Of a stretch of 64,000 nucleotides of DNA, positions 3,381 through 58,501 are shown piece by piece. The notes beneath the pieces were generated by a model that worked only from the letters and a program-made list of their open reading frames with translations, was not told the origin of the DNA and searched no databases. The DNA is taken from positions 115,179 to 179,178 of IMG/VR virus record IMGVR_UViG_3300020048_000017; one strand, written 5' to 3'. The position numbers and the translations under genes were made by a program. Within the stretch, counting starts at the first letter, position 1. Each line of letters starts with the position of its first letter. Origin of the DNA: a virus.

Positions 3381-5002
3381 CCGATGGTTTTATCAAATAA
3401 CTCTTTATGTTTAACGTAATTATAAGACACTTTTAAATTAAACCTTTTATCGACAGATGAGAAACTATAAGACGCATCATTTATAAATCCACAACGACCA
3501 GATTCAGGTTTTTCGAGATAGTCATACCCAAGATCTAAAAAATCATTAAGCGATGGAGTCCCCGTGGAAAGTATATTTACACTTGTGGAAATCTCTGATA
3601 GAGACGAATTCCCACTTCTACAACCCCCCACGATCTCTTCTCCAAACCCAAGAATTTTAAACGTCTGATGAAGGGCAACCCCCTCGTTAACAGATATAGA
3701 GTGTCTCACCTCGGTAAAAGGGTCGGGCACTTTGTAAGCATTATCGCAAGAATAGTCGCGAGAGTAAGAAATTTGGCCTTCTGATTCAGAATCGTTGATA
3801 GAGAATTTAATTGGAACAAATCCCGAACAACATAATTGTCCCGCACCAGAAACGATATTCGCTATTCTAGCACCAGAGTTAGTGAGCATTGACTGGTAAC
3901 AGTTCTTTGCGTTAGTATACTTTTGGTTATCAGGATACGTTCTTTTACCAAGACCTTTAATCTCAACTTTTTCAGAAATAACAGCCGCGCTAGTTGAGGA
4001 ATTAGAGACGTTGTGAGTAATTCTGGTAATACAACCTGTGGAAATTGAATTGTCGTTACTGTAAGTAACATCGTAATCGATCATCCCAACAAACTCGTTA
4101 AATGAAACGCTTTGATTTACTGGCGAATTTATTAGCGGGCACCCGATATCATCGACAAAATTATAGTTAGATAAGACCCCACTGCACCTTGAGAATGTCC
4201 CTACTATAGAGCCGTCATAGCCGATCAAGGCGGATGTTATTTTCGGGCGAGTCGCCGCAAGTATACTACCTTTTTCAGTAACTACGGTTGAGTTATTCTC
4301 TTTAGTAAGTGAGTGTGCATATTTCCAGATGAAAGGATCTCCAGATTGAAAGGCGAACTTTTCAGAAAAGGTATATGCGAAATTTATCGTATCATAAGAC
4401 TCTGAGTAAATTCTGTTTCCAGAGCTGTAATAGGAAGGGTAGAAAACCTCCAGATCAGAGATGTTCATTCCGTTACCGAAAATAATGTCCGCTATATTTT
4501 TTGCAGTCTGGGTAGGATTAGTCTCAACACCGCTTTCCAAGGACAAGTTAAGGCTTCGAGAGTATTCGAAAGTTTGATCGGCACCTTTGTTAAAATCCCA
4601 AGATTCGGAAAAGTTTTGAAGAAAATGAATATCTTCCGCTTGGATACCGCTTACACCAGAATAATATTCACCATATACGTTGAACAAGTCCAGCTTTTCA
4701 CATACTATAAAAGAGATGGAGTATTTCTTGTCCCTTACATCCACGCCTTGATCGTAATCTATATTAGTTATATAGCCCGACCCAAAAAGTTGACCATTAA
4801 GAAATATAGGCTCGTAGTCTTTTAAATACGAAACTTGAGAGTTTATTTGGTTAGTGATTCCCGAAACCCCAGAGAAATTTTGATAATCAGTAAGTCGCCC
4901 TTTAACTGAGTAATTTTTCTCTTTTCTATATGACAGAACGTCACCAAGACTTACTAAGTTTTGGTCAAAGGATAGAAGTTCTGCACATTCTATGGAGATC
5001 AT
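3377..5002 (-). CDS. Distal tail/hub-like structural protein
   Basis: 541 aa directly after the tape measure gene with ATGA overlaps; architecture similar to 1758-3380. Confidence 0.55.
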   Translation of the reverse strand: MISIECAELLSFDQNLVSLGDVLSYRKEKNYSVKGRLTDYQNFSGVSGITNQINSQVSYLKDYEPIFLNGQLFGSGYITNIDYDQGVDVRDKKYSISFIVCEKLDLFNVYGEYYSGVSGIQAEDIHFLQNFSESWDFNKGADQTFEYSRSLNLSLESGVETNPTQTAKNIADIIFGNGMNISDLEVFYPSYYSSGNRIYSESYDTINFAYTFSEKFAFQSGDPFIWKYAHSLTKENNSTVVTEKGSILAATRPKITSALIGYDGSIVGTFSRCSGVLSNYNFVDDIGCPLINSPVNQSVSFNEFVGMIDYDVTYSNDNSISTGCITRITHNVSNSSTSAAVISEKVEIKGLGKRTYPDNQKYTNAKNCYQSMLTNSGARIANIVSGAGQLCCSGFVPIKFSINDSESEGQISYSRDYSCDNAYKVPDPFTEVRHSISVNEGVALHQTFKILGFGEEIVGGCRSGNSSLSEISTSVNILSTGTPSLNDFLDLGYDYLEKPESGRCGFINDASYSFSSVDKRFNLKVSYNYVKHKELFDKTIG

Positions 5003-8000
5003 GCCGTATTAACAACCGAAGGAGCAAGTTTGTTGTTTCTGGCGAAGTTGTCGAGACCTCTTTGAAGTTGTTCTTGAAATTTAGCAAACTCAACATTAAC
5101 AAGTTTTTCAACCTCTTGATTTTGACCACCATTGAAGGAAACATTAACCTCTAAAGGTCTTCCGCCATCAAGTCTTAAAGAAGTTTGAGAAGAACCTGAG
5201 GAAGACCCTTGTTTTAGTTTTTCTATTTCTTCTTTTAGTCTGTTTAATTCAGCAGGTGTCCCGTCCTTGTTTTCGATACGATTTTGTTTTAGGTAAATAG
5301 AATCCATTACCTCTCTAGGTAGAGCTGGTTTAACAGGACTATTAGAAGGCATAGGAATTAAACTCTGCCCTTCAGACATTCTAGAAAGGTTTTCGTCAAT
5401 TAATTTAAGATCAGCCTCTAGCTCTTTTATTCTATTTTGAGCTTGAGGCTTTCTTAAAACCTTTCTGTCAATACTAATATACGGATTTATATCCTGCTTA
5501 CCTTCACTTCTATAAAGTGCCGATTCCTCCGGATACGTTTCAGGCATATTACGCGCCCATTCATCTATCTTCTCATTGATCTCATTTTGTCTTTCAGGAA
5601 TCACAGAAGTTCTATCAACTGCCACTAAGTTCCGCTTTAGATTTTTTATTTTTGTAGACAATTTCCACGCATATTCAATGAGGGCGTTATGTTGCTCTTC
5701 AGAATACTCTATTTTTTCAGGAGCACTATTAGGGTCACTTTTAGGGTCACTTTTTTCGACCGAGGCTTTTTCGCGAGCACTTTTTTGAGCGTTAATTTCC
5801 CCCAACTGCCCATCCAGATCATTAATTCTATTTAAAGTATTGGCGACTTTATCACCCTCCATTCCAAAGTTTTCTTTAACAACTCCAGCTCCAGAAAATG
5901 TATCAAAAGCAACAGGGTTTTTAACCGGATCGTTAAGCAAAGCATTTCTTTTCATAACTTGTTGGGCCGCCGCTTTTCCCAATTGAGTATCAGATGTTCC
6001 TCCAGCTCTTTTTTGAGCAGCTTCGTCGGCAGTATCTTGAATAATTCTACTCTTGCGTTCTCGCTCTTCTTTGGTGGCGTTTGCGTTAGCTATAATTTTA
6101 TTATAAGCTTCCTTACGTTTATCCTCTGGGGTCTTATATTGATCAAGAGGATTTGGAACAGCAGGAGTAGGAATTGTAGGAGCAGGAACCGCAGGAGCAG
6201 GAACCGCAGGAGTAGGAGCAGGAGCAGGAACCGCAGGAGCAGGAGTAGGAGCAGGAACCGCAGGAGTAGGAGCAGGAATTGTAGGGGCAGGAGCGGGAAT
6301 TGTAGGGGCAGGAGTAGGAATTGTAGGAGTGGGAATTGTAGGGGCAGGAGTAGTTTTGTTACCACACTCGCACGCTTGTATTTCTTTTATTAAATCAGTT
6401 AAACGCTTATTAGAAATCTCTTTTAAGATTTTAATTATTTCTTTATTTTCATTAGAATTGTCATTACTAAATTTTTGAGTGATATTTATCAATCTCGATT
6501 CTTCAGAATGACCACCGACAGGAACGACCCCTCCAGCGGCAACTTTTGAAACTTTACCTAAGCTTTTTAAATTTTGAAGACCGCCGATTCTCTTCAACAT
6601 ATCTCGGTTAAAGATAGAATCCTGACCAGATCCTTGGAAATTCTCAACTAAGAATTCGTCCGTATTTGCAGTGACTCCATTTTTTAACAACACCGGAGAA
6701 GCTGAGGGCCTAGCTCCTCCTACACCACTATTTATAAAGGATTTTTCTAATACTTTCGGCAACATTCCTCCAGCCGAAACTTTCGAGACGCTACCCATAT
6801 TTTGAAGGTTTTTAAATCCGCCAATATTACGAACCATTTCTCTATTAAAGATGGCGTCTTTTTTCGACCCTCTAAAATTCCTAACCAGATATTCGTCAGT
6901 GTTAGCAACGATGCTTTCTTTTCCGCTTCCGGTGTTAACTCCATTCAGTAAAACTGGTTTGGCGGAAGACCTAGCCCCACCAACTCCTTTAGAGATTAAA
7001 GAGCTTTCCAAATCCATTGGAAGAAATCCAGATGCAAGAGACGGCGTGGCGGGGACTTGTAGTTGGGTCCGTAATGTTCTTGTTTTTTCTATTTCCCTTT
7101 CTAAAACTTTTTCAAGTGATTCAATTTCTTTCTCTAATTCTTTAATTCTTTCTGGAGAGGCTTTAGGAGCCTTTTCAATCTTCGTATTAACACCGTAACC
7201 AGTTGCTATAGATGTAGTTTCGTCACGTTCTGCTTTCGCAGCTTCGATTCTGGAAGTTAAGTTTCTTTGACTTATAATAGAATTCGACACTTTTTCTTGA
7301 ACATTTTTTATCTTGACTTCTTCAAGAGCTTTTCTTCTTCCGCTGACCGAATTTTCAGACTCAATAAACTCATTTTGCAGGGCTCCGAATTTGTCATCGA
7401 TTGCTTGTAAGAAATCTGCGGCATCTTCTGTGTTTTGTCTTATTTGATCTTGAACATCTTTTTGCCCAGCTAGAGCAATCATTGCGTCAGCAGCTTCGCT
7501 TAAAGCGTTCTTTCCAGATTCTTTATCGATAACAGCTTCTCCGAAATCAGAAATTCCGCTTTCATCATTATCAGCCCTTACTCTAGAGATATTTTTCTCA
7601 GCTTCAGACTTTGATCCTTTTAAAAGATTGAAATCTAATACAGATTGTTTATCTTTTGATTTGGAAATTATGTCTCCTAGAGGATCTAGACTTATACTTT
7701 CGAGAGGGACTCCAGATTTTAAAGCATTTTCGATTTCCTGTGTGATTTTTTTGAAATCTTCCCTCTTAGAAACATCGCTTGGGGTTCCGCTTTTGAATTT
7801 TGAAAAATCATTTTGGAAAGAGGACCTAGCTTGTGTTGAAACTAAATTAGCTAAATCTTTAGCAGCAGTTTTTCCTTCAGGGAAAAGTTTAGATATTTGA
7901 TCTTTTGCGTCTTTACCCAGAGCTTCTTTATCTCCGCCTTTTGCAAGACCCTCTTCTAATTTTGACAAAATGGTAGTCCCCGCAGAGTCTACATCTTCTC

Positions 8001-11000
8001 TAACAAGTCCATTAGAAATCCTTTCGAGCAAATCATTAAGCCTCGCCGAGATAAGTTTTTTAGATATCTCAAAGCCCTTTTCGTTAAAAGATTGGGTAGC
8101 CTCTTTGTCTTTAGGTTTGTCACCTGATATAAATTCGTTAGCACTTAATCTGGCTTCGAAAAGCTTATTACCAGCCTCAAAAGGGTTACCCTTCGATACC
8201 GCGCCCAGCCCACCAAATAAGTTGGCAGTATTGGATTTTCTTATTCTTTCAAGGCTCGCAAATAGCTTCTCCCTTACTTTAGTAAGACTGTCTTCTAAAT
8301 CTAAACCCGTCGAAGAAACTTGTTCTATAACTTCTGCTGTGCCAATTTGTTCTTCGTTAGAGGCATCTTCAACAACGGTCATTAAACCCTTTAAGCCTAT
8401 ATCCCCATTTTTAAAATCGGAAAAAAGATCGTTAATTCCCTTAACTCTTTCTTGCAATTCCTTTTGAGAAATTCTAGCTTCGCTTCCTGACTGACCAGCC
8501 TGACTTACTAGGCTTTCTTTTAAATTAAATGTTTTAGACCTAGCTTCGTTGATAGCTTCCGCTTTAGCAACAGCAGCCTCAACAAAACTATCAGCAACAG
8601 AGTTTGCTCCAGATTCGAAATTATTGGTAGCTCTGAAAGATTTTAAAGAAAATTCTCGGTCAGCATTATTATTTAAAATTTTTGCAGAAAGGCTAACTCC
8701 TTTAGAAAAGTCTTGCAGTTTTTCTTTAGCTACAACTACAGCTTTAGCAACATCGTTTTCAGCTTCTACCCTTCTTTGGTTTATCGCTAAAGTTTTAAGA
8801 TCGAGAGCTAAAGTTTCAGCAAGAATACCTTTGCTTTGACCTAACTTTTCAGACCATTCTGCAACAGTAGTCGCGGCATTATCCAGACCAAGGCCTTTCA
8901 ATAGATCTTCAAAAGAACCCCCTTCTTGTAAGAATTTGTCTACGACAGGTTCAGCAGATATTGCGTTACTTGGACCAACCCCCCTGATTAGTTCGGAAAT
9001 GATTTCAGAAGATGCGGAGTCGTAGCCGATACCTTTTAAATTTTCGTCCTTGCCACTAAATAATCTAGAGATTTTTGTAACTCCGTCTATCCTTTGGTCG
9101 TCCAAAGTTCTGAGCAAGGCTCCGAACTCCTTTTGAGAAACTGTTTTTCTAGAAGGATCGGAAATTTCTTCGAGAGCCTTTTGGAACTCGCTAAATTGAT
9201 CTATTCCTTTGTCAGTCTCCTCTTTTGTAAACTGTCTTTCACTAATTCCAATTACTTTATTGCGAAGACCATCGTCTTTTATTTCAAATAAAGATTCTAG
9301 GGATTTAGAGGTTAACTCTTGTATAGAAGAGGAGCTGGCCCCAGATTTAATAGCATCGTTAAGTTGATTTAAAGAAGTGATATATCCACGAACAGAATTA
9401 ACCACTTCGTTAGTTGAATTTGCTTCCTCTTGAGCTTCTCTTTTTAAAGTTTCTGCCGACTTACCTACAGTAGAGTTATAGTCAACCACTCCTTTTAGGG
9501 CAATTCCCAGACCGGCAGCAGCAGCAGCGATTAAGCCGATTTGGTTAGGGAATGTAGCAAAAATTGCAGTAGCGGTAGACAGGGAGTTTGTCCAAGTTTC
9601 TATTTTTTGTTGCCCACCTTCGTCCGCCTCTTTTTTTAAAGCCTCTCCAGCTAAGGGGATTAAGAAGGACGCTCCGAAAGCTCCCATTTGACCCCTTTGT
9701 AAAGCGGCTCCGTATTTTGCAGATCTTTGAGCTTTTAGTTCTTGGGCCTTTATTTTTTCCGATCTAAGGTCATTTCTACGATTTCTTTCTGCAATTCTGG
9801 AAGAAAGCGTGTCGTTATAACCCTGAGTGCCAAAAACTGGTCTATTAGGATCTATGTTACGAGTCTGCCTTGCAGCTTGTCTTTGTAAATCCTGATTAGT
9901 TTTAAAATCCTTACGAGCTTTTTCTAACTCCTCGGCATCGAGCTTAGCATTAATAGCATCAAGTTGTGCTTTTTTAGCTCTCTTCTTTCTCAAAACATCC
10001 TCTGGGTCATCGGGGGGTTTCGGAGGAACAGGCCCTTGCATACGACCTTCGTTAATAAGATCTTGCTCGACTTGTTTTTTAATAGCTTCGTTTTGAAGTT
10101 TTAATTCAGCCTTCTTTCTAGTCTCGTCATAAGTAAGAAGTCCCGTATTTGTAGGCGCGGCGGTTCCAGCGGCAATTTTAGCCTTAGCTCTTAAAGATTC
10201 GTTTCTCTTCTTGTCCGTTTCCTCTTGGGTAAACTTCTTAAGAAGAGCAGCTTCTTCTAGTCTAGAAGACCTTTTAGCCGTAACGGCTTTCAACCTAGCT
10301 TCGTATTCAGGTGTGCCCTTAGAGGTTAACGGTAATACCCCTCCAGACCTTTTAGATCTAGCAGCTTCGAAAGCTTTCTTAGCGGCTAATATGGGTTTTT
10401 TCTCTTCTCTGGTTCGTCTGCCAAGTTCAGTAGAAACAATTTTAGACTCTTTTGAAATTCTTTCTAAAGTTTTTGCGTTAGCTTTTTCTTTTCTAGCAAG
10501 GGTTTTAACGGTAGCGTCAAAAGTTTCTTTCTGCGCTAAGAGTTTTTCTTTTTTGGCTGGCTTAAGAGCATCTGTTTTAGTAAGATTACTTAACTCCATA
10601 AAAGAGTCTTGTTCTAATTGATTAGAAATAATAGACGCTTTTTTTCTAGCAGAAGCCAAAATCTTTTGGTTTCGCTTTAACTCTTTCGCCATTAATTTAT
10701 TAGCTTCAGAGTATTCTTTTAAATTTTTAGCAAGCCCAATAGTTTCCTTTTCTACTTTAATAATACCTTTAGGGCCTCTTAATGGAACGTTTCCACCAGC
10801 TAAATTAGGGGTAAATCCACCAGCAGAAACTCTAGATACATCACCAAGGAATTTTAAATTTTTAAGCCCCCCAACGCTTCTTAACATGTCTTTATTAAAG
10901 ACTGCGTCAGCACCAGATCCGTTATAATTTTTAATTATGTATTCATCGGTATTCGCTACAATAGTTTCTTTCCCCGCACCAGTGTTAAAACCTTTCACGA

Positions 11001-49163: not shown

Positions 49164-49193
49164 ATGACTTTCGTCCGATATCGATTTAGCTAA
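49164..49193 (+). CDS. Leaderless leader peptide MTFVRYRFS
   Basis: ATG 5 nt after the -10 element; followed by a hairpin at 49193-49219. Confidence 0.45.
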   Translation: MTFVRYRFS

Positions 49194-55493: not shown

Positions 55494-55720
55494 CAAAGAA
55501 AAAGCTTTTAGAAAACATTTATTTTGCGGCACTCCATTTGAAGAAGCTGAACACCTTGTTAGCAAACGATTTGTTAAGAGACGATGTGTCGAGAGCTAGG
55601 GCCGAAGGGGCTCTGGAGGCTTACGGATATATCGAACTAATGATTTTGCGCAACGATTCAATTGGCTCGACAGATTATAAAAAGGTGTTTGACATGAAAG
55701 AAAACTGTCCAGACCTCTGA
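55490..55720 (+). CDS. Hypothetical protein
   Basis: ATGA coupling. Confidence 0.55.
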   Translation: MTKKKLLENIYFAALHLKKLNTLLANDLLRDDVSRARAEGALEAYGYIELMILRNDSIGSTDYKKVFDMKENCPDL

Positions 55721-55728
55721 AAAAGCTC

Positions 55729-55756
55729 TTGACAAAATTCCAGAGTGAGTTATATT
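55729..55756 (+). promoter_or_regulatory. Early promoter TTGACA-N16-TATATT
   Basis: First of two tandem promoters upstream of the third tRNA operon. Confidence 0.7.
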
Positions 55757-55857
55757 AACCTCTCAACCAATTTCAACAAAAGCTTTAGATTTTAAGTGAC
55801 ACTAGACGACCCATAAATTAACACAATCGGAATTCCTCAAAAATCTAAAAAAATCAG

Positions 55858-55885
55858 TTGACAAATTTCACATTTCAGTTATACT
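55858..55885 (+). promoter_or_regulatory. Early promoter TTGACA-N16-TATACT
   Basis: Second tandem promoter. Confidence 0.75.
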
Positions 55886-55907
55886 ACTGTATTCAATTTT
55901 ACTTCAC

Positions 55908-56057
55908 ATGAAGCCAGATACCAACATCACACATTCCAGTAATCCCTCGGGGAACGGAATCGTCGTGCTCAAACCGTAAATTAACGGGGTATCTAGAAAA
56001 GTCCTAATCAGGCATCAATAAAATCTACGATACCCTACAACATAGGAGGATTTTATT
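55908..56057 (+). promoter_or_regulatory. Attenuator-like leader: 23-aa peptide MKPDTNITHSSNPSGNGIVVLKP (55908-55979) plus alternative helices
   Basis: AGATACC/GGTATCT, GGGTATCTAG/CTACGATACCC and CCTA/TAGG with AATAAAATCT/GGATTTTATT are mutually exclusive pairings. Confidence 0.55.
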
Positions 56058-56076
56058 ACAATTTAAAAAAACAAAA

Positions 56077-56163
56077 CTGGTTGTAGCTCAGTCTGGTCAG
56101 AGCAGGCGCTTTGGATGCGTCAGGCCCAACGGGATCTCAGAGGTTCGAATCCTCTCAACCAGA
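56077..56163 (+). tRNA. tRNA-Pro(TGG) with a 17-nt variable arm
   Basis: C1-G72, A73, GGCGC-TTTGGAT-GCGTC, variable hairpin CCC-AAC-GGG, canonical T arm. Confidence 0.85.
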
Positions 56164-56170
56164 TCCAATT

Positions 56171-56196
56171 TTCACCTATCCGATACTTTTGTGTAA
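56171..56196 (+). promoter_or_regulatory. Late-type promoter TTC-N17-GTGTAA in front of the endonuclease
   Basis: Same motif as in the structural operon, 9 nt before the ATG. Confidence 0.6.
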
Positions 56197-56205
56197 TACT
56201 TTCTT

Positions 56206-57210
56206 ATGGAGGATATTAAACGAATTGTCGGAGAGTCTAAAAGTTTCGGAGATTTTTTTAGAGCTATAGGAAAAAAGTCTTATAGCGGTCAACAAAAATT
56301 AAAATACCAAAAACTTTTAAAAGATAATAATATAGATTTTGACCACTTTGAAACAAACGGGGCAAGTAAATTAAGAAAGTATGAAAAGATAACTAAAACA
56401 TGCCCACAGTGCGGCGAATCTTTCGAAACACAAAATGGTCACCCAAAAGAACTTTCGACATGTTCCCGACAATGCTCAAATATCTATTTTTCTTCAAAAA
56501 GAACTACAGAGGAAGCTAAATCAAATATCTCCAAAGGTCTTTTAAAATATTTTGGAAATACAGCCAAAACAAAAACAACTAACCAAACTAATAAAAAACC
56601 CCCGTCTGTAAGAAAAATAATAAACTGTGCAGTATGCCAAAAGAGTTTTAAACAAAAGGAAGATAGGCACAAATGTTGCTCGAAATTATGTGGGCAGGTT
56701 CTTCAATTTGGGTTTGCTCCGCTCTCAAAAATAGAAGTTATTGATGGAATTTTAGAATTAGAAAAAACTGGAGACTGGCAACAAAGAAAGGCCCCAACAA
56801 AGCTTTTAAGCGGGGCAAAAACGCATTTCGGAAGTTGGAACAAAGCTATTAAAGCCGCAGGGCTCAAACCAAATGATTCAAAATTCAAAAGAGTAAGAAT
56901 AAAGTGCATAGATGGAGATATAGTAGATAGCCTTTCTGAAAGAACAATTGACGAATTTCTTTTTAATAAAAATATAGCCCACACTATCCACAAGAAATAC
57001 CCAAATTCAAATAAAAGATACGATTTCTATTTGCCCGATTTTGATACCTATGTAGAATATTTTGGATTAACAGGAGACGAAGCTTACGATATAGCCACAG
57101 AAGAGAAGATTAAATTTTGCGAAGACAATGATCTAAAATTGATAGCAATTTACCCAACTGACATTTACCCAACACATAACCTCGAACAAATTTTCAAAGA
57201 CATTATTTAG
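56206..57210 (+). mobile_element. Homing-endonuclease-like gene (Zn fingers plus C-terminal PD-(D/E)XK-like domain) inserted in the tRNA array
   Basis: CPQCG...CSRQC, CAVC...CCSKLC; DSLSERTIDEFL...YDFYLPDFDTYVEYFG. Confidence 0.75.
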
Positions 57211-57214
57211 AAAC

Positions 57215-57285
57215 GGATCATAAGTTTTAAAGTGAAACAAGGCTCTTTTAAAGCCTAGAAGAAGGCGCGATACCTTCATGGTCCA
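57215..57285 (+). tRNA. tRNA-Lys(TTT)
   Basis: AGGCT-CTTTTAA-AGCCT; T loop CGCGATA. Confidence 0.78.
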
Positions 57286-57298
57286 TCAACTTACAAAT

Positions 57299-57373
57299 TC
57301 CTCGTAATGCACAGAGTGTGCAGCCGCCCTGTTAAGGCGTGCGAGCTTGGGGCGGTGCCAAGACGGGGAGCCA
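57299..57373 (+). tRNA. tRNA-Asn(GTT)
   Basis: CGCC-CTGTTAA-GGCG, G73, CCA; T loop GGCGGTG. Confidence 0.8.
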
Positions 57374-57382
57374 ATTTTAATT

Positions 57383-57589
57383 ATGAACACACAAATAGCA
57401 AAACTAAAAGCGGAAGTTCTTAACGGAGCAAATCGGGAAAAAGCACTAGCAGAGCTAATTGCTATTTGCGAGCACGAAGCATTTGACAAAGGTGTTGAGT
57501 ATGCTACAGTTGCTCAAATGGAAGTTCAGAAGAGAATCAAAAATTTCAAAAGAGAAAGGAAATTATCTGAGCCAGTAATGGCTTGGTAA
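57383..57589 (+). CDS. Small helical protein within the tRNA array
   Basis: MNTQIAKLKAEVL..., fills the gap between tRNA-Asn and tRNA-Leu. Confidence 0.6.
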   Translation: MNTQIAKLKAEVLNGANREKALAELIAICEHEAFDKGVEYATVAQMEVQKRIKNFKRERKLSEPVMAW

Positions 57590-57595
57590 ACAAAT

Positions 57596-57676
57596 GCGGG
57601 AGTGGCGTAATGGTAGCCGCGTGGGATTTAGAATCCCATGTCGAAAGGCGTAGGGGTTCGAGTCCCCTCTCCCGTA
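57596..57676 (+). tRNA. tRNA-Leu(TAG)
   Basis: Class II cloverleaf, TGGGA-TTTAGAA-TCCCA, A73. Confidence 0.92.
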
Positions 57677-57699
57677 TCAAAAATTTAACAAAACAAAAT

Positions 57700-57788
57700 G
57701 GAGGGTAGCACCCTTGGTGGGTAACGAGGCTTGAACCCTCGGCGAGGTCAGAGATGGCCTCAGAACTCGATATTCTTACTCTCTTCCA
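57700..57788 (+). tRNA. tRNA-Ser(TGA) with an atypical T arm and U73
   Basis: CGAGG-CTTGAAC-CCTCG, long variable arm GAGGTC/GGCCTC, CCA. Confidence 0.75.
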
Positions 57789-57871
57789 ATTTTAGATCGA
57801 GAAACAAAACAAACAACAAAATGTGACGGTTCGATTCCCTACACTTCTTTAATTTTAACAACAACTTAAAA

Positions 57872-57948
57872 TCCTTACTTGGTGTAATTGGCGAGCATCC
57901 GATCCTGTGAAGATCGTGGAGAGAGTTCGAGGCTCTCAGAAGGAACCA
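57872..57948 (+). tRNA. tRNA with GTG anticodon (His) lacking G-1/C73
   Basis: CGATC-CTGTGAA-GATCG; acceptor with a bulged A; A73; CCA. Confidence 0.78.
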
Positions 57949-57959
57949 AATTTATAAAA

Positions 57960-58033
57960 GTCGGTTTGGCGTAATAGTAGCGTAGGAGTTTTCCAAACTT
58001 CTGGCGAGGGGGCGGAACCCTCAACCGATACCA
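57960..58033 (+). tRNA. tRNA-Gly(TCC)
   Basis: GGAGT-TTTCCAA-ACTTC; T loop GGCGGAA; A73; CCA. Confidence 0.8.
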
Positions 58034-58042
58034 AATTTTAAT

Positions 58043-58115
58043 GCCCTCAAAGCTTTTATTAGATGAAGTTCCGCCTTGTAAGCGGAGGAAACCGGCGCAC
58101 TACCGGATGAGGGCT
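58043..58115 (+). tRNA. tRNA-Thr(TGT)
   Basis: GCCCTCA/TGAGGGC; TCCGC-CTTGTAA-GCGGA; T loop CGCACTA. Confidence 0.8.
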
Positions 58116-58135
58116 TCACTTTTTATTATTTTTGC

Positions 58136-58163
58136 TTGACAAAATCCCAGCTTGTGCTATAAT
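58136..58163 (+). promoter_or_regulatory. Early promoter TTGACA-N16-TATAAT (leaderless)
   Basis: ATG at 58169, 5 nt after the -10 element. Confidence 0.8.
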
Positions 58164-58168
58164 GGGTC

Positions 58169-58501
58169 ATGCACAAATTCAAACTTATTGCGGTCGCCGT
58201 TGCGATCCTATCGACCCTTCTCGGAATTCTGACGTTTCCTTACTGGTCAGCCGAAACAATTTCTATCACGGTAACGGACAAGGAGCGGGCTCCATCTAAT
58301 AAAGGTGGTTTTTACATGGTGTTTTCTAAAGAGGAAACTCTTCGTAACGAAGACGTTCGTCGTTACCTTAAGTTCAATTCATCTGACCTTCAAGGAAAAC
58401 TTGAGATCGGGAAAACTTATAAAGTTAAAGTATACGGCTGGAGAGTCCCAATGTTTTCTAAATACCGCAATCTAGTTAAAGTTTATGAAAATAGTAAATA
58501 A
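58169..58501 (+). CDS. Membrane-anchored OB-like phage protein (DUF1523-like)
   Basis: N-terminal TM; TVTDKER...FNSSDLQGKL...YGWRVP. Confidence 0.6.
   Translation: MHKFKLIAVAVAILSTLLGILTFPYWSAETISITVTDKERAPSNKGGFYMVFSKEETLRNEDVRRYLKFNSSDLQGKLEIGKTYKVKVYGWRVPMFSKYRNLVKVYENSK

Follow-up and report, generated by a model that had tools for sequence, protein, structure and literature searches.

A candidate multivalent leader-peptide attenuator ahead of a tRNA gene array in an uncultured freshwater phage

Ribosome-mediated attenuators that respond to more than one amino acid include those of ilvGMEDA (Ile/Leu/Val) and thr (Thr/Ile), in which a short promoter-proximal open reading frame (ORF) names several amino acids and a stalled ribosome selects between exclusive helices ahead of a U-rich stop. 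In the trp attenuator (trpL), four regions pair either as 1:2 and 3:4 or as 2:3, the stop codon lies just before region 2, and termination is expected both without translation and after full translation. The pheST attenuator, with its pheM leader, controls phenylalanyl-tRNA synthetase; here a leader peptide senses codon decoding capacity and regulates a component of the translation apparatus. T-box riboswitches sense tRNA status and choose between a terminator and an antiterminator. In mycobacteria, leaderless poly-Cys short ORFs were found to be cysteine-responsive attenuators (bioRxiv 10.1101/834739). The present analysis concerns a leader with a 23-codon ORF at position 55908, which lies between a promoter and an array of tRNA genes in IMG/VR record IMGVR_UViG_3300020048_000017. 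This uncultured virus genome of 179,178 bp has direct terminal repeats, and the window, i.e., the whole stretch of 64,000 nucleotides (nt) analysed, is its final 64 kb. Full-text searches of the literature found no paper describing leader-peptide control of tRNA genes.

The favoured interpretation, to which a rough probability of 0.6 is assigned, is that the leader is a translation-coupled, multivalent ribosome-mediated (leader-peptide) attenuator, controlling how much transcription from the promoter at 55858 enters the tRNA array. It rests on the following features.

55858 to 55885, + strand: sigma-70-type promoter (TTGACA-16-TATACT), conserved in the homologues that extend that far
55908 to 55979, + strand: leader ORF, from ATG 55908 to TAA 55979, 23 codons plus TAA, with no Shine-Dalgarno sequence
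55916 to 55922, + strand: region 1 (AGATACC, codons 3-5), which forms 7 base pairs with region 2 (GGTATCT, 55988-55994)
55933 to 55960, + strand: ORF-internal helix of ATTCC (55933-55937) with GGAAT (55956-55960), the helix invariant, with a small CCC/GGG hairpin cap
About 55986 to 55996, + strand: region 2, GGGGTATCTAG, 6 nt past the stop codon, partner of region 1 or region 3
56002 to 56008, + strand: 5' strand of a long-range helix with 56047-56053, 8 pairs, 93% paired
56025 to 56035, + strand: region 3, CTACGATACCC, antiterminator with region 2, or partner of region 4 via CC
56017 to 56057, + strand: terminal hairpin 3:4, CCTA (56034-56037) with TAGG (56043-56046), A-tract 56017-56026 and U-rich stretch 56048-56057

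Transcription would start near 55891, judging from the spacing of the promoter. We infer that the ORF is translated and that its translation governs premature termination, by a step that may be intrinsic or factor-dependent. The ORF lies wholly inside the loop closed by 1:2 and uses only codons read by tRNAs of the ancestral array (described below). Because the whole ORF is inside this loop, any codon could in principle act as a sensor. With no ribosome, or after a fast run to the stop codon that leaves the ribosome covering region 2, helix 1:2 and/or 3:4 with its U-rich tail would form, and most transcripts would then end before tRNA-Pro. A ribosome stalled at any codon of the ORF, where the tRNA is scarce or uncharged, would keep region 1 off region 2. 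The freed region 2 would pair with region 3, the terminal hairpin would be blocked, and the polymerase would continue into the tRNA genes. In this manner, the phage would make its tRNA set when the decoding of exactly those codons is slow, the proposed physiological trigger.

The array that the leader precedes in the window is as follows.

56077 to 56163, + strand: tRNA-Pro(TGG), 87 nt, with a long variable arm
56206 to 57210, + strand: HNH/homing-endonuclease-like ORF between tRNA-Pro and tRNA-Lys
57215 to 57285, + strand: tRNA-Lys(TTT), non-canonical D and T loops, called by ARAGORN -ps90
57299 to 57373, + strand: tRNA-Asn(GTT), non-canonical, called by ARAGORN -ps80 and in mitochondrial mode
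57383 to 57589, + strand: conserved 68-amino-acid ORF inside the array, with a promoter-like motif at 57483-57510
57595 to 57678, + strand: tRNA-Leu(TAG)
57700 to 57784, + strand: tRNA-Ser(TGA), long acceptor stem, tRNA-Sec-like match of 25.9 bits (homologues 35-36 bits)
57828 to 57850, + strand: remnant of the 3' end of a tRNA-Ser(GCT), a deletion mark, from alignment to relative L093
57872 to 57948, + strand: tRNA-His(GTG)
57960 to 58033, + strand: tRNA-Gly(TCC)
58043 to 58115, + strand: tRNA-Thr(TGT), non-canonical, the last of the unit, called in ARAGORN mitochondrial mode

The unit is taken to end at tRNA-Thr(TGT) because the next strong promoter is at 58136. A first-pass annotation of the window had described the promoter, the 23-codon ORF, helices 1:2, 2:3 and 3:4 and the eight tRNAs, and all of them were recovered where it had placed them. 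In relatives L091, L093 and L106, the order of the array is Pro-Lys-Asn-[small ORF]-Leu(TAG)-Ser(TGA)-Asp-Val-Ile-Ser(GCT)-His-Gly-Thr, with various ORFs inserted, and the shorter contigs L099-L101 keep the same tRNA order as far as they extend. No Asp, Val, Ile or Ser(GCT) tRNA passing Infernal or ARAGORN -ps90 was found anywhere in the genome of the window phage; the mitochondrial mode gave a few low-confidence Val and Ile calls. The segment 57828-57886 aligns at 87% to L093 2405-2465, which holds the 3' end of Ser(GCT) and the spacer before His. This indicates that a deletion in the window lineage removed Asp, Val and Ile together with the 5' part of Ser(GCT).

The first-pass annotation held that the leader peptide samples exactly the eight amino acids of the downstream tRNAs. 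It was found that 17 of the 22 non-Met residues of the window peptide fall in this set; 0.6% of 22-residue segments in long ORFs and 1.5% of those in six-frame translations reach that value, and taken alone the match is moderately unusual and not compelling. The five residues outside the set are Asp, Ile (twice) and Val (twice), and these, together with an AGT serine codon, are read by exactly the lost tRNAs. Since the lost tRNAs serve these residues and AGT, the match to the ancestral array is complete: 22/22 residues and 22/22 codons lie within its 11-amino-acid set. The sampling of the array's amino acids is thus borne out, and the number eight has to be replaced by the eleven amino acids of an ancestral twelve-tRNA array. 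Put differently, the leader "predicted" tRNAs that were found in relatives and are lost from the window genome. A lack of correlation between peptide composition and tRNA content in homologous loci had been named in advance as a result that would count against the idea; the comparison instead gave a closer match than the annotation had claimed. Against the relatives' arrays, the two other peptide types each score 21/22, as compared with 22/22 for the window peptide, and their sole miss is the final sense codon, for Arg. All 11 amino-acid types occur in each peptide type, despite about half of the residues differing.

How often such a match arises by chance was estimated in several ways. Across the genome, windows of 22 residues fully inside the 11-amino-acid set occur at a frequency of 1.6-2.1e-4, and among 491 short ATG ORFs (18-30 codons) in the genome the leader alone is fully inside it. 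Dinucleotide-preserving shuffles gave p = 5.8e-4 for the window peptide and 4e-3 and 3e-3 for the other two types; the window value becomes 1.5e-4 when all 11 types are also required to be present. The three amino-acid types that mismatched the first-pass set are the same three that the relatives' arrays add, a coincidence with a chance of 1 in 220 (3 of 12 remaining types). This match is independent, as the relatives' arrays were not available to the first-pass annotation. The compositional signal is strong only once the relatives' arrays are counted. The correspondence that is usual in attenuators between regulatory codons and the product of the regulated genes is present here, with the codons scattered rather than in runs.

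A short ORF between the promoter and the regulated genes is also conserved. Eight distinct leader sequences from four lineages were compared (window, L091 and L093; L102 and L103; L097, L100 and L101; L099), with nucleotide identities to the window of 66-95%. The ATG, the frame, the length of 23 codons and the position of the stop codon are kept in all homologues (e.g., L097:5435-5506, L099:401-472, L102:498-569). In the three distinct peptide types tested, the leader frame alone is open, the other two frames containing stops. Seven substitutions were counted in the ORF within lineages, of which six are synonymous third-position changes and one is Val to Ile; assuming that 28% of random changes are synonymous, the probability of this is about 0.003 by the author's count. 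Between lineages, about half of the peptide residues differ. The two strands of the invariant ATTCC/GGAAT helix encode the residues that are kept, His-Ser and Gly-Asn-Gly-Ile, so that RNA structure accounts better than a functional peptide for the deep conservation. The variable residues remain inside the tRNA set. Such a pattern, with conserved residues on helices and variable ones confined to the set, would be expected of a sensor and not of a functional peptide.

The leader (about 55891-56076) folds at -34.6 kcal/mol (z = -2.7), and its minimum free energy (MFE) structure holds 1:2 and the terminal hairpin. Helix 2:3 forms once the 5' part is omitted from the fold. RNAalifold and pair counts supported three helices, namely 1:2, the ORF-internal helix and the long-range helix. 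Helix 1:2 is 100% paired in the eight sequences and includes one compensatory A-U to U-A change (in L099). The apical hairpin of the ORF-internal helix is CCC/GGG in the window and CCU/AGG in L099, and the long-range helix has five pairs with one-sided compatible changes and one pair changed on both sides. Overall, 97.4% of helix cells are paired across homologues, as against 26-63% with the partners slid. The stop codon lies 6-7 nt upstream of region 2 in all homologues. Region 3 differs by lineage (GATACCC, versus GTGCCCC in clade B) and still complements the invariant region 2 (GGGGTAT); its C-run also partners GGAGGA (56045-56050) in the terminal hairpin, which is invariant across all homologues and is followed by the U-rich tract from 56051. 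On these models, the pairings of regions 2, 3 and 4 are a classical mutually exclusive arrangement. The motif GGAGGA was also considered as a Shine-Dalgarno site and rejected, as there is no ORF after it and the phage does not use such sites. Likewise, a decayed tRNA or tRNA-like pseudogene was rejected as the origin of the leader, since no tRNA call was obtained in 55891-56076 even with relaxed ARAGORN settings.

The effect of a ribosome was modelled by folding each of six homologues with a 30-nt mask. With no mask, 1:2 and the terminal hairpin form. When the mask was placed at codon 5, region 2 paired with region 3 and the terminal hairpin was lost in 6/6 homologues, and with the mask over the stop codon the terminal hairpin re-formed. 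Mutually exclusive helices set by the position of the ribosome are thus found computationally, and the switch between 1:2/3:4 and 2:3 that the first-pass annotation had proposed to look for by folding under a ribosome-footprint constraint is seen in all six. Its attenuator layout has likewise held up, with a conserved frame, covariation in 1:2 and alternatives that persist with different region-3 sequences. Taken together, the comparative evidence, which could have gone the other way, supports the first-pass interpretation. An Rfam cmscan of 55700-58200 (E up to 10) gave tRNA matches and noise and nothing on 55891-56076; neither the leader families Trp_leader, His_leader, Thr_leader and Leu_leader nor the T-box gave a covariance-model match.

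Leaders with matched codons were also found elsewhere. One of them is in the window itself.

49164 to 49193 (element to 49220): second leader, a 9-codon ORF that starts 5 nt after a -10 box

Five of its eight sense codons are for Phe, Tyr and Arg, and it is followed by a hairpin of -18.2 kcal/mol and then by Tyr(GTA)-like, Phe and Arg(ACG)-like tRNAs. The first-pass annotation had cited this leader as a parallel case, and the comparison agrees: the homologue in a relative (L106:7560-7589, element 7560-7612) keeps an Arg-Tyr-Arg-Phe core, its hairpin arms differ yet remain complementary, i.e., they covary, and Tyr, Phe and Arg(ACG)-like tRNAs lie downstream. The stop codon of the 49164 leader abuts the strong hairpin and no antiterminator was found, so its logic may differ from that of the 55908 leader.

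A blind screen was made of 62 small ATG ORFs located up to 300 nt upstream of tRNA arrays, at loci mostly collected for an unrelated purpose, as neighbours of RNA ligase genes. The top two matches came from unrelated large phages. In L017 (IMGVR_UViG_3300031957_002643, 335 kb, a jumbo phage), 16 of the 18 residues that follow the start of the ORF at 8096-8155 are drawn from the six amino acids of its array (Phe, Asp, Ile, Glu, Arg, His), each of which occurs at least once (p = 7.6e-7); the array reads Phe-Asp-Ile-Glu-Glu-Arg-His-Arg. After the ORF comes a strong, G+C-rich terminator at 8185-8212 plus a T run (element 8096-8216), to whose 5' arm the ORF end is complementary at -22.4 kcal/mol. 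In L010 (IMGVR_UViG_3300020576_006930, 139 kb), the 16-codon ORF at 3563-3613 lies downstream of a promoter (element 3509-3680) and draws 12 of 15 residues from the five amino acids of its array (Trp, Arg, Asn, Phe, Ile), again with none of them missing (p = 5e-5); the array is Trp-Arg-Arg-Asn-Phe-Arg-Ile-Arg. Here, too, the ORF end is complementary, at -17.7 kcal/mol, to the 5' arm of a strong, G+C-rich terminator with a T run (3641-3668), and the Gly codons at the ORF end make up the antiterminator strand. In both phages, the helix between the ORF end and the 5' arm is in the MFE structure of a transcript truncated before the 3' arm. As modelled, the layout amounts to a simple antiterminator/terminator pair, and termination would be favoured once a ribosome arrives at the stop codon. 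When the array sets were permuted among 23 arrays outside the window family, the median best p was 0.026, and 3% of permutations reached the observed p, which is about the rate at which the set stays at its own locus.

Several observations weigh against an attenuator at 55908. The codons for any one amino acid number 1-3 and lie scattered, in contrast to the runs of the trp, his and leu leaders. The window leader has kept its Asp, Ile, Val and AGT codons after losing the corresponding tRNAs. Covariation is thin, with two pairs changed on both sides and four lineages only. With the mask at codon 15 or 20, 1:2 can formally still pair, and in nested-fold models a stall past about codon 10 does not free region 2; sensing by every codon consequently rests on steric grounds, in that a 70S ribosome within the loop would keep 1:2 from closing. 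The terminal hairpin is weak, as the first-pass annotation had already remarked: in the window, the core has -2.6 kcal/mol and the hairpin with its A/U extension -7.0 kcal/mol. The homologues span -2.6 to -3.7 for the core and -6 to -9.6 kcal/mol when extended, while a real terminator elsewhere in the phage has -19.6. The U tract is poor in L100 and L101, with 4 U in the 12 nt after the hairpin. Finally, the promoter-like motif at 57483-57510 (TTGACA, 16 nt, TACAGT) is found at the same place in all relatives, and it may be a separate promoter for the distal tRNAs or merely conserved coding sequence; as a strong promoter it would leave the leader in control of Pro, Lys and Asn only.

The weakness of the hairpin leads to an explanation that keeps the same logic, in which slow decoding gives more tRNA, and replaces the 3:4 step by Rho-dependent termination or by a change in how the leader-tRNA precursor is processed or degraded. 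An efficient intrinsic terminator would need a far stronger core hairpin, and the first 38 nt after the start codon hold 12-14 C against 3-5 G in all homologues. Being C-rich and G-poor, this first half of the ORF allows for Rho-dependent termination, since Rho could load there unless a stalled ribosome covered the site; precedents are the leaders of the tnaC and mgtA type, which work in a Rho-dependent manner. However, the terminal hairpin is kept in all lineages, including its A-tract, the invariant GGAGGA and the U-rich tail, L017 and L010 use plain strong intrinsic terminators, and no Rho gene or host is known for the phage. Control by this route is considered unlikely. It is also rather unlikely that the leader is a structured non-coding RNA, either a stable small RNA co-processed with the tRNAs or a processing/stability element, with the ORF as an untranslated by-product. 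The tRNA cluster of T4 carries stable RNAs of unknown function, which offers a precedent, and the significantly stable fold (z = -2.7), the conserved helices, the coincidence of conserved "residues" with helix strands and the lack of a Shine-Dalgarno sequence would all suit such an RNA. On the other hand, the lack of that sequence is general in the genes of this phage, and a non-coding RNA would account neither for a frame, start and stop conserved in four lineages next to two frames with stops, nor for 6/7 synonymous recent changes; it also leaves the confinement of amino acids and codons to the tRNA set of the array unexplained.

The conserved ORF and its mostly synonymous recent changes would also fit an ORF whose 23-residue product is a small peptide with a function of its own and which has its own weak terminator; its match to the array would then be coincidental or a by-product of local codon usage. 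Some attenuator leader peptides act in trans (peTrpL, PMC7298713), which provides a precedent. This explanation is improbable, given that about half of the residues differ between lineages, that the conserved ones sit on RNA helices, that confinement to the array set with all 11 types is not expected of such a peptide, and that the same codon matching recurs in unrelated peptides of unrelated phages. An inverted coupling of the pyrBI type would have a ribosome close behind the polymerase prevent the hairpin, with fast decoding giving more tRNA and slow decoding less. The layout at 49164, where the stop codon abuts a strong hairpin and no antiterminator was found, fits it. At 55908, however, region 2 sits between the stop codon and regions 3 and 4, and an occupied ORF would give 2:3, as in trp; moreover, positive feedback on tRNA supply has no obvious benefit. 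For the 55908 leader, this is very improbable, and a leader-peptide attenuator of the trp type remains the favoured interpretation.

The tRNAs of the array exist, with five of the eight being non-canonical and low-scoring. At default settings, ARAGORN passes Pro, Leu and His only, and Rfam passes Pro, Leu and Gly only; relaxed settings were needed for Lys and Gly (ARAGORN -ps90), Asn (-ps80) and Thr (mitochondrial mode). The homologues of the weak-scoring tRNAs score well in relatives. The Lys, Asn and Thr tRNAs have D and T loops without the GG and TTC signatures (e.g., the T loop CGCGATA), which is why standard tools miss them. A long variable arm, as in the window's tRNA-Pro, is also present in the tRNA-Asn of a relative; the unusual tRNAs include one at L097:5901-5987. 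One lineage has an extra stretch of 130 nt between the leader and the canonical tRNA-Pro (L097:5590-5722), holding an aberrant second tRNA-Pro(TGG)-like cloverleaf. The HNH ORF of the window is not at this site in L091 and L093, and a fragment of it is found in L100. Other endonuclease ORFs (HNH, PD-(D/E)XK) lie at differing sites in the arrays of relatives, which looks like mobile insertion.

The genome comes from aquatic metagenomes, the sequencing runs listed for it are all DNA metagenome runs, and the phage is described as freshwater. No close relative was found among deposited phages, and an INPHARED search led to tRNA matches only. The leader-bearing contigs were reached via homologues of the small ORF at 57383-57589. 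In the relative first seen, via freshwater-run contigs, the leader block 55825-56042 differs at 5/218 positions, and the flanking coding DNA is 14-16% different. Contigs of the same population (runs X2-X4) showed no leader differences, and no leader paralogue was found in the genome or in the other collected loci. Protein routes to close relatives gave a best match of 57% for the RNA ligase and none for the HNH ORF; the large terminase matched at 79% identity, on a 22-kb fragment without the array. A search with the 76-amino-acid upstream ORF returned only loci without the leader. Viral and metagenome contig collections were scanned for the tRNA-Pro, exact leader words and a degenerate leader pattern, and no match was obtained; the leader-bearing JGI contigs are apparently outside those collections.

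The early region of the genome has many near-consensus sigma-70-type promoters with a 16-nt spacer, and the genome carries several tRNA blocks. A Shine-Dalgarno-like word is found upstream of 13.5% of long ORFs, as compared with 15.9% at random positions; the genes of this phage do not use Shine-Dalgarno sequences. Several early genes are leaderless, starting 5-6 nt past the -10 box. Such leaderless genes, or genes without a Shine-Dalgarno sequence, combined with near-perfect sigma-70 consensus promoters, may be a clue to an unusual host. In the region upstream of the leader promoter (55729-55857), a second strong promoter at 55729 is directly followed by a fragment (about 55759-55770) that resembles tRNA-Pro at its 3' end. 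Past this fragment, at about 55786-55850, lies an inverted repeat, TTTAGATTTT ... AAAATCTAAA, which is conserved. Relatives keep both the fragment and the repeat; some have insertions of 55-250 nt there, one with a small ORF (L093:507-670).

The roles proposed for the tRNA arrays of large phages include codon-usage compensation, replacement of degraded host tRNAs and escape from tRNA-cleaving defences. If the proposed mechanism is true, a sensor that ties expression of the array to slow decoding of exactly its codons would mark such arrays as demand-driven replacement sets, and reporters would allow a direct test of the trigger. Classical attenuation, so far a matter of amino-acid biosynthesis, would also come to include the translation apparatus itself. 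In uncultured phages, the codon content of leaders could define functional tRNA operons and flag non-canonical tRNAs missed by standard tools. The chances appear about even that these elements form an undescribed class of phage regulators, namely multivalent leader-peptide attenuators in which the capacity to decode with each tRNA species of an array is read codon by codon, and which switch the array on only when the host supply fails (shut-off, starvation or anticodon-nuclease defence). The 55908 element would be the broadest of them, with 11 amino acids and 12 tRNAs represented in 22 codons and its ORF enclosed in the anti-antiterminator loop.

Among known systems, T-box riboswitches resemble the 55908 leader in sensing tRNA status through a terminator/antiterminator choice. 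Unlike it, they work independently of translation, through direct binding of uncharged tRNA; the phage leader showed neither T-box nor specifier motifs and no Rfam match. The mycobacterial poly-Cys ORFs share the very short ORF at the 5' end whose codon content sets downstream expression, and they come nearest to the 49164 leader, but they respond to a single amino acid, belong to a bacterial host and have protein-coding targets. The likeness to pheST lies in a leader peptide that senses decoding capacity on behalf of the translation apparatus; there, however, one amino acid's synthetase gene is regulated, whereas in the phage it would be a whole block of tRNA genes. With trpL, the phage leader has in common the four regions, the stop codon just before region 2 and the two expected routes to termination. 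It departs from trpL in that its ORF lies wholly in the 1:2 loop and has no tandem regulatory codons, and in a 3:4 stem of only 4 base pairs plus an A/U extension. The ilvGMEDA and thr attenuators similarly combine a promoter-proximal ORF naming several amino acids with helices chosen by stalling. In contrast to them, the phage leader would control tRNA genes instead of biosynthetic enzymes and samples 11 amino acids by 1-3 scattered codons each instead of by runs; it is moreover phage-borne, with a weak terminator and no counterpart in Rfam. What differs from the ilv, thr and trp attenuators taken as a group is therefore the weak terminator, the sampling of 11 amino acids by 22 codons that form no runs, and the nature of the controlled genes, which are tRNAs.

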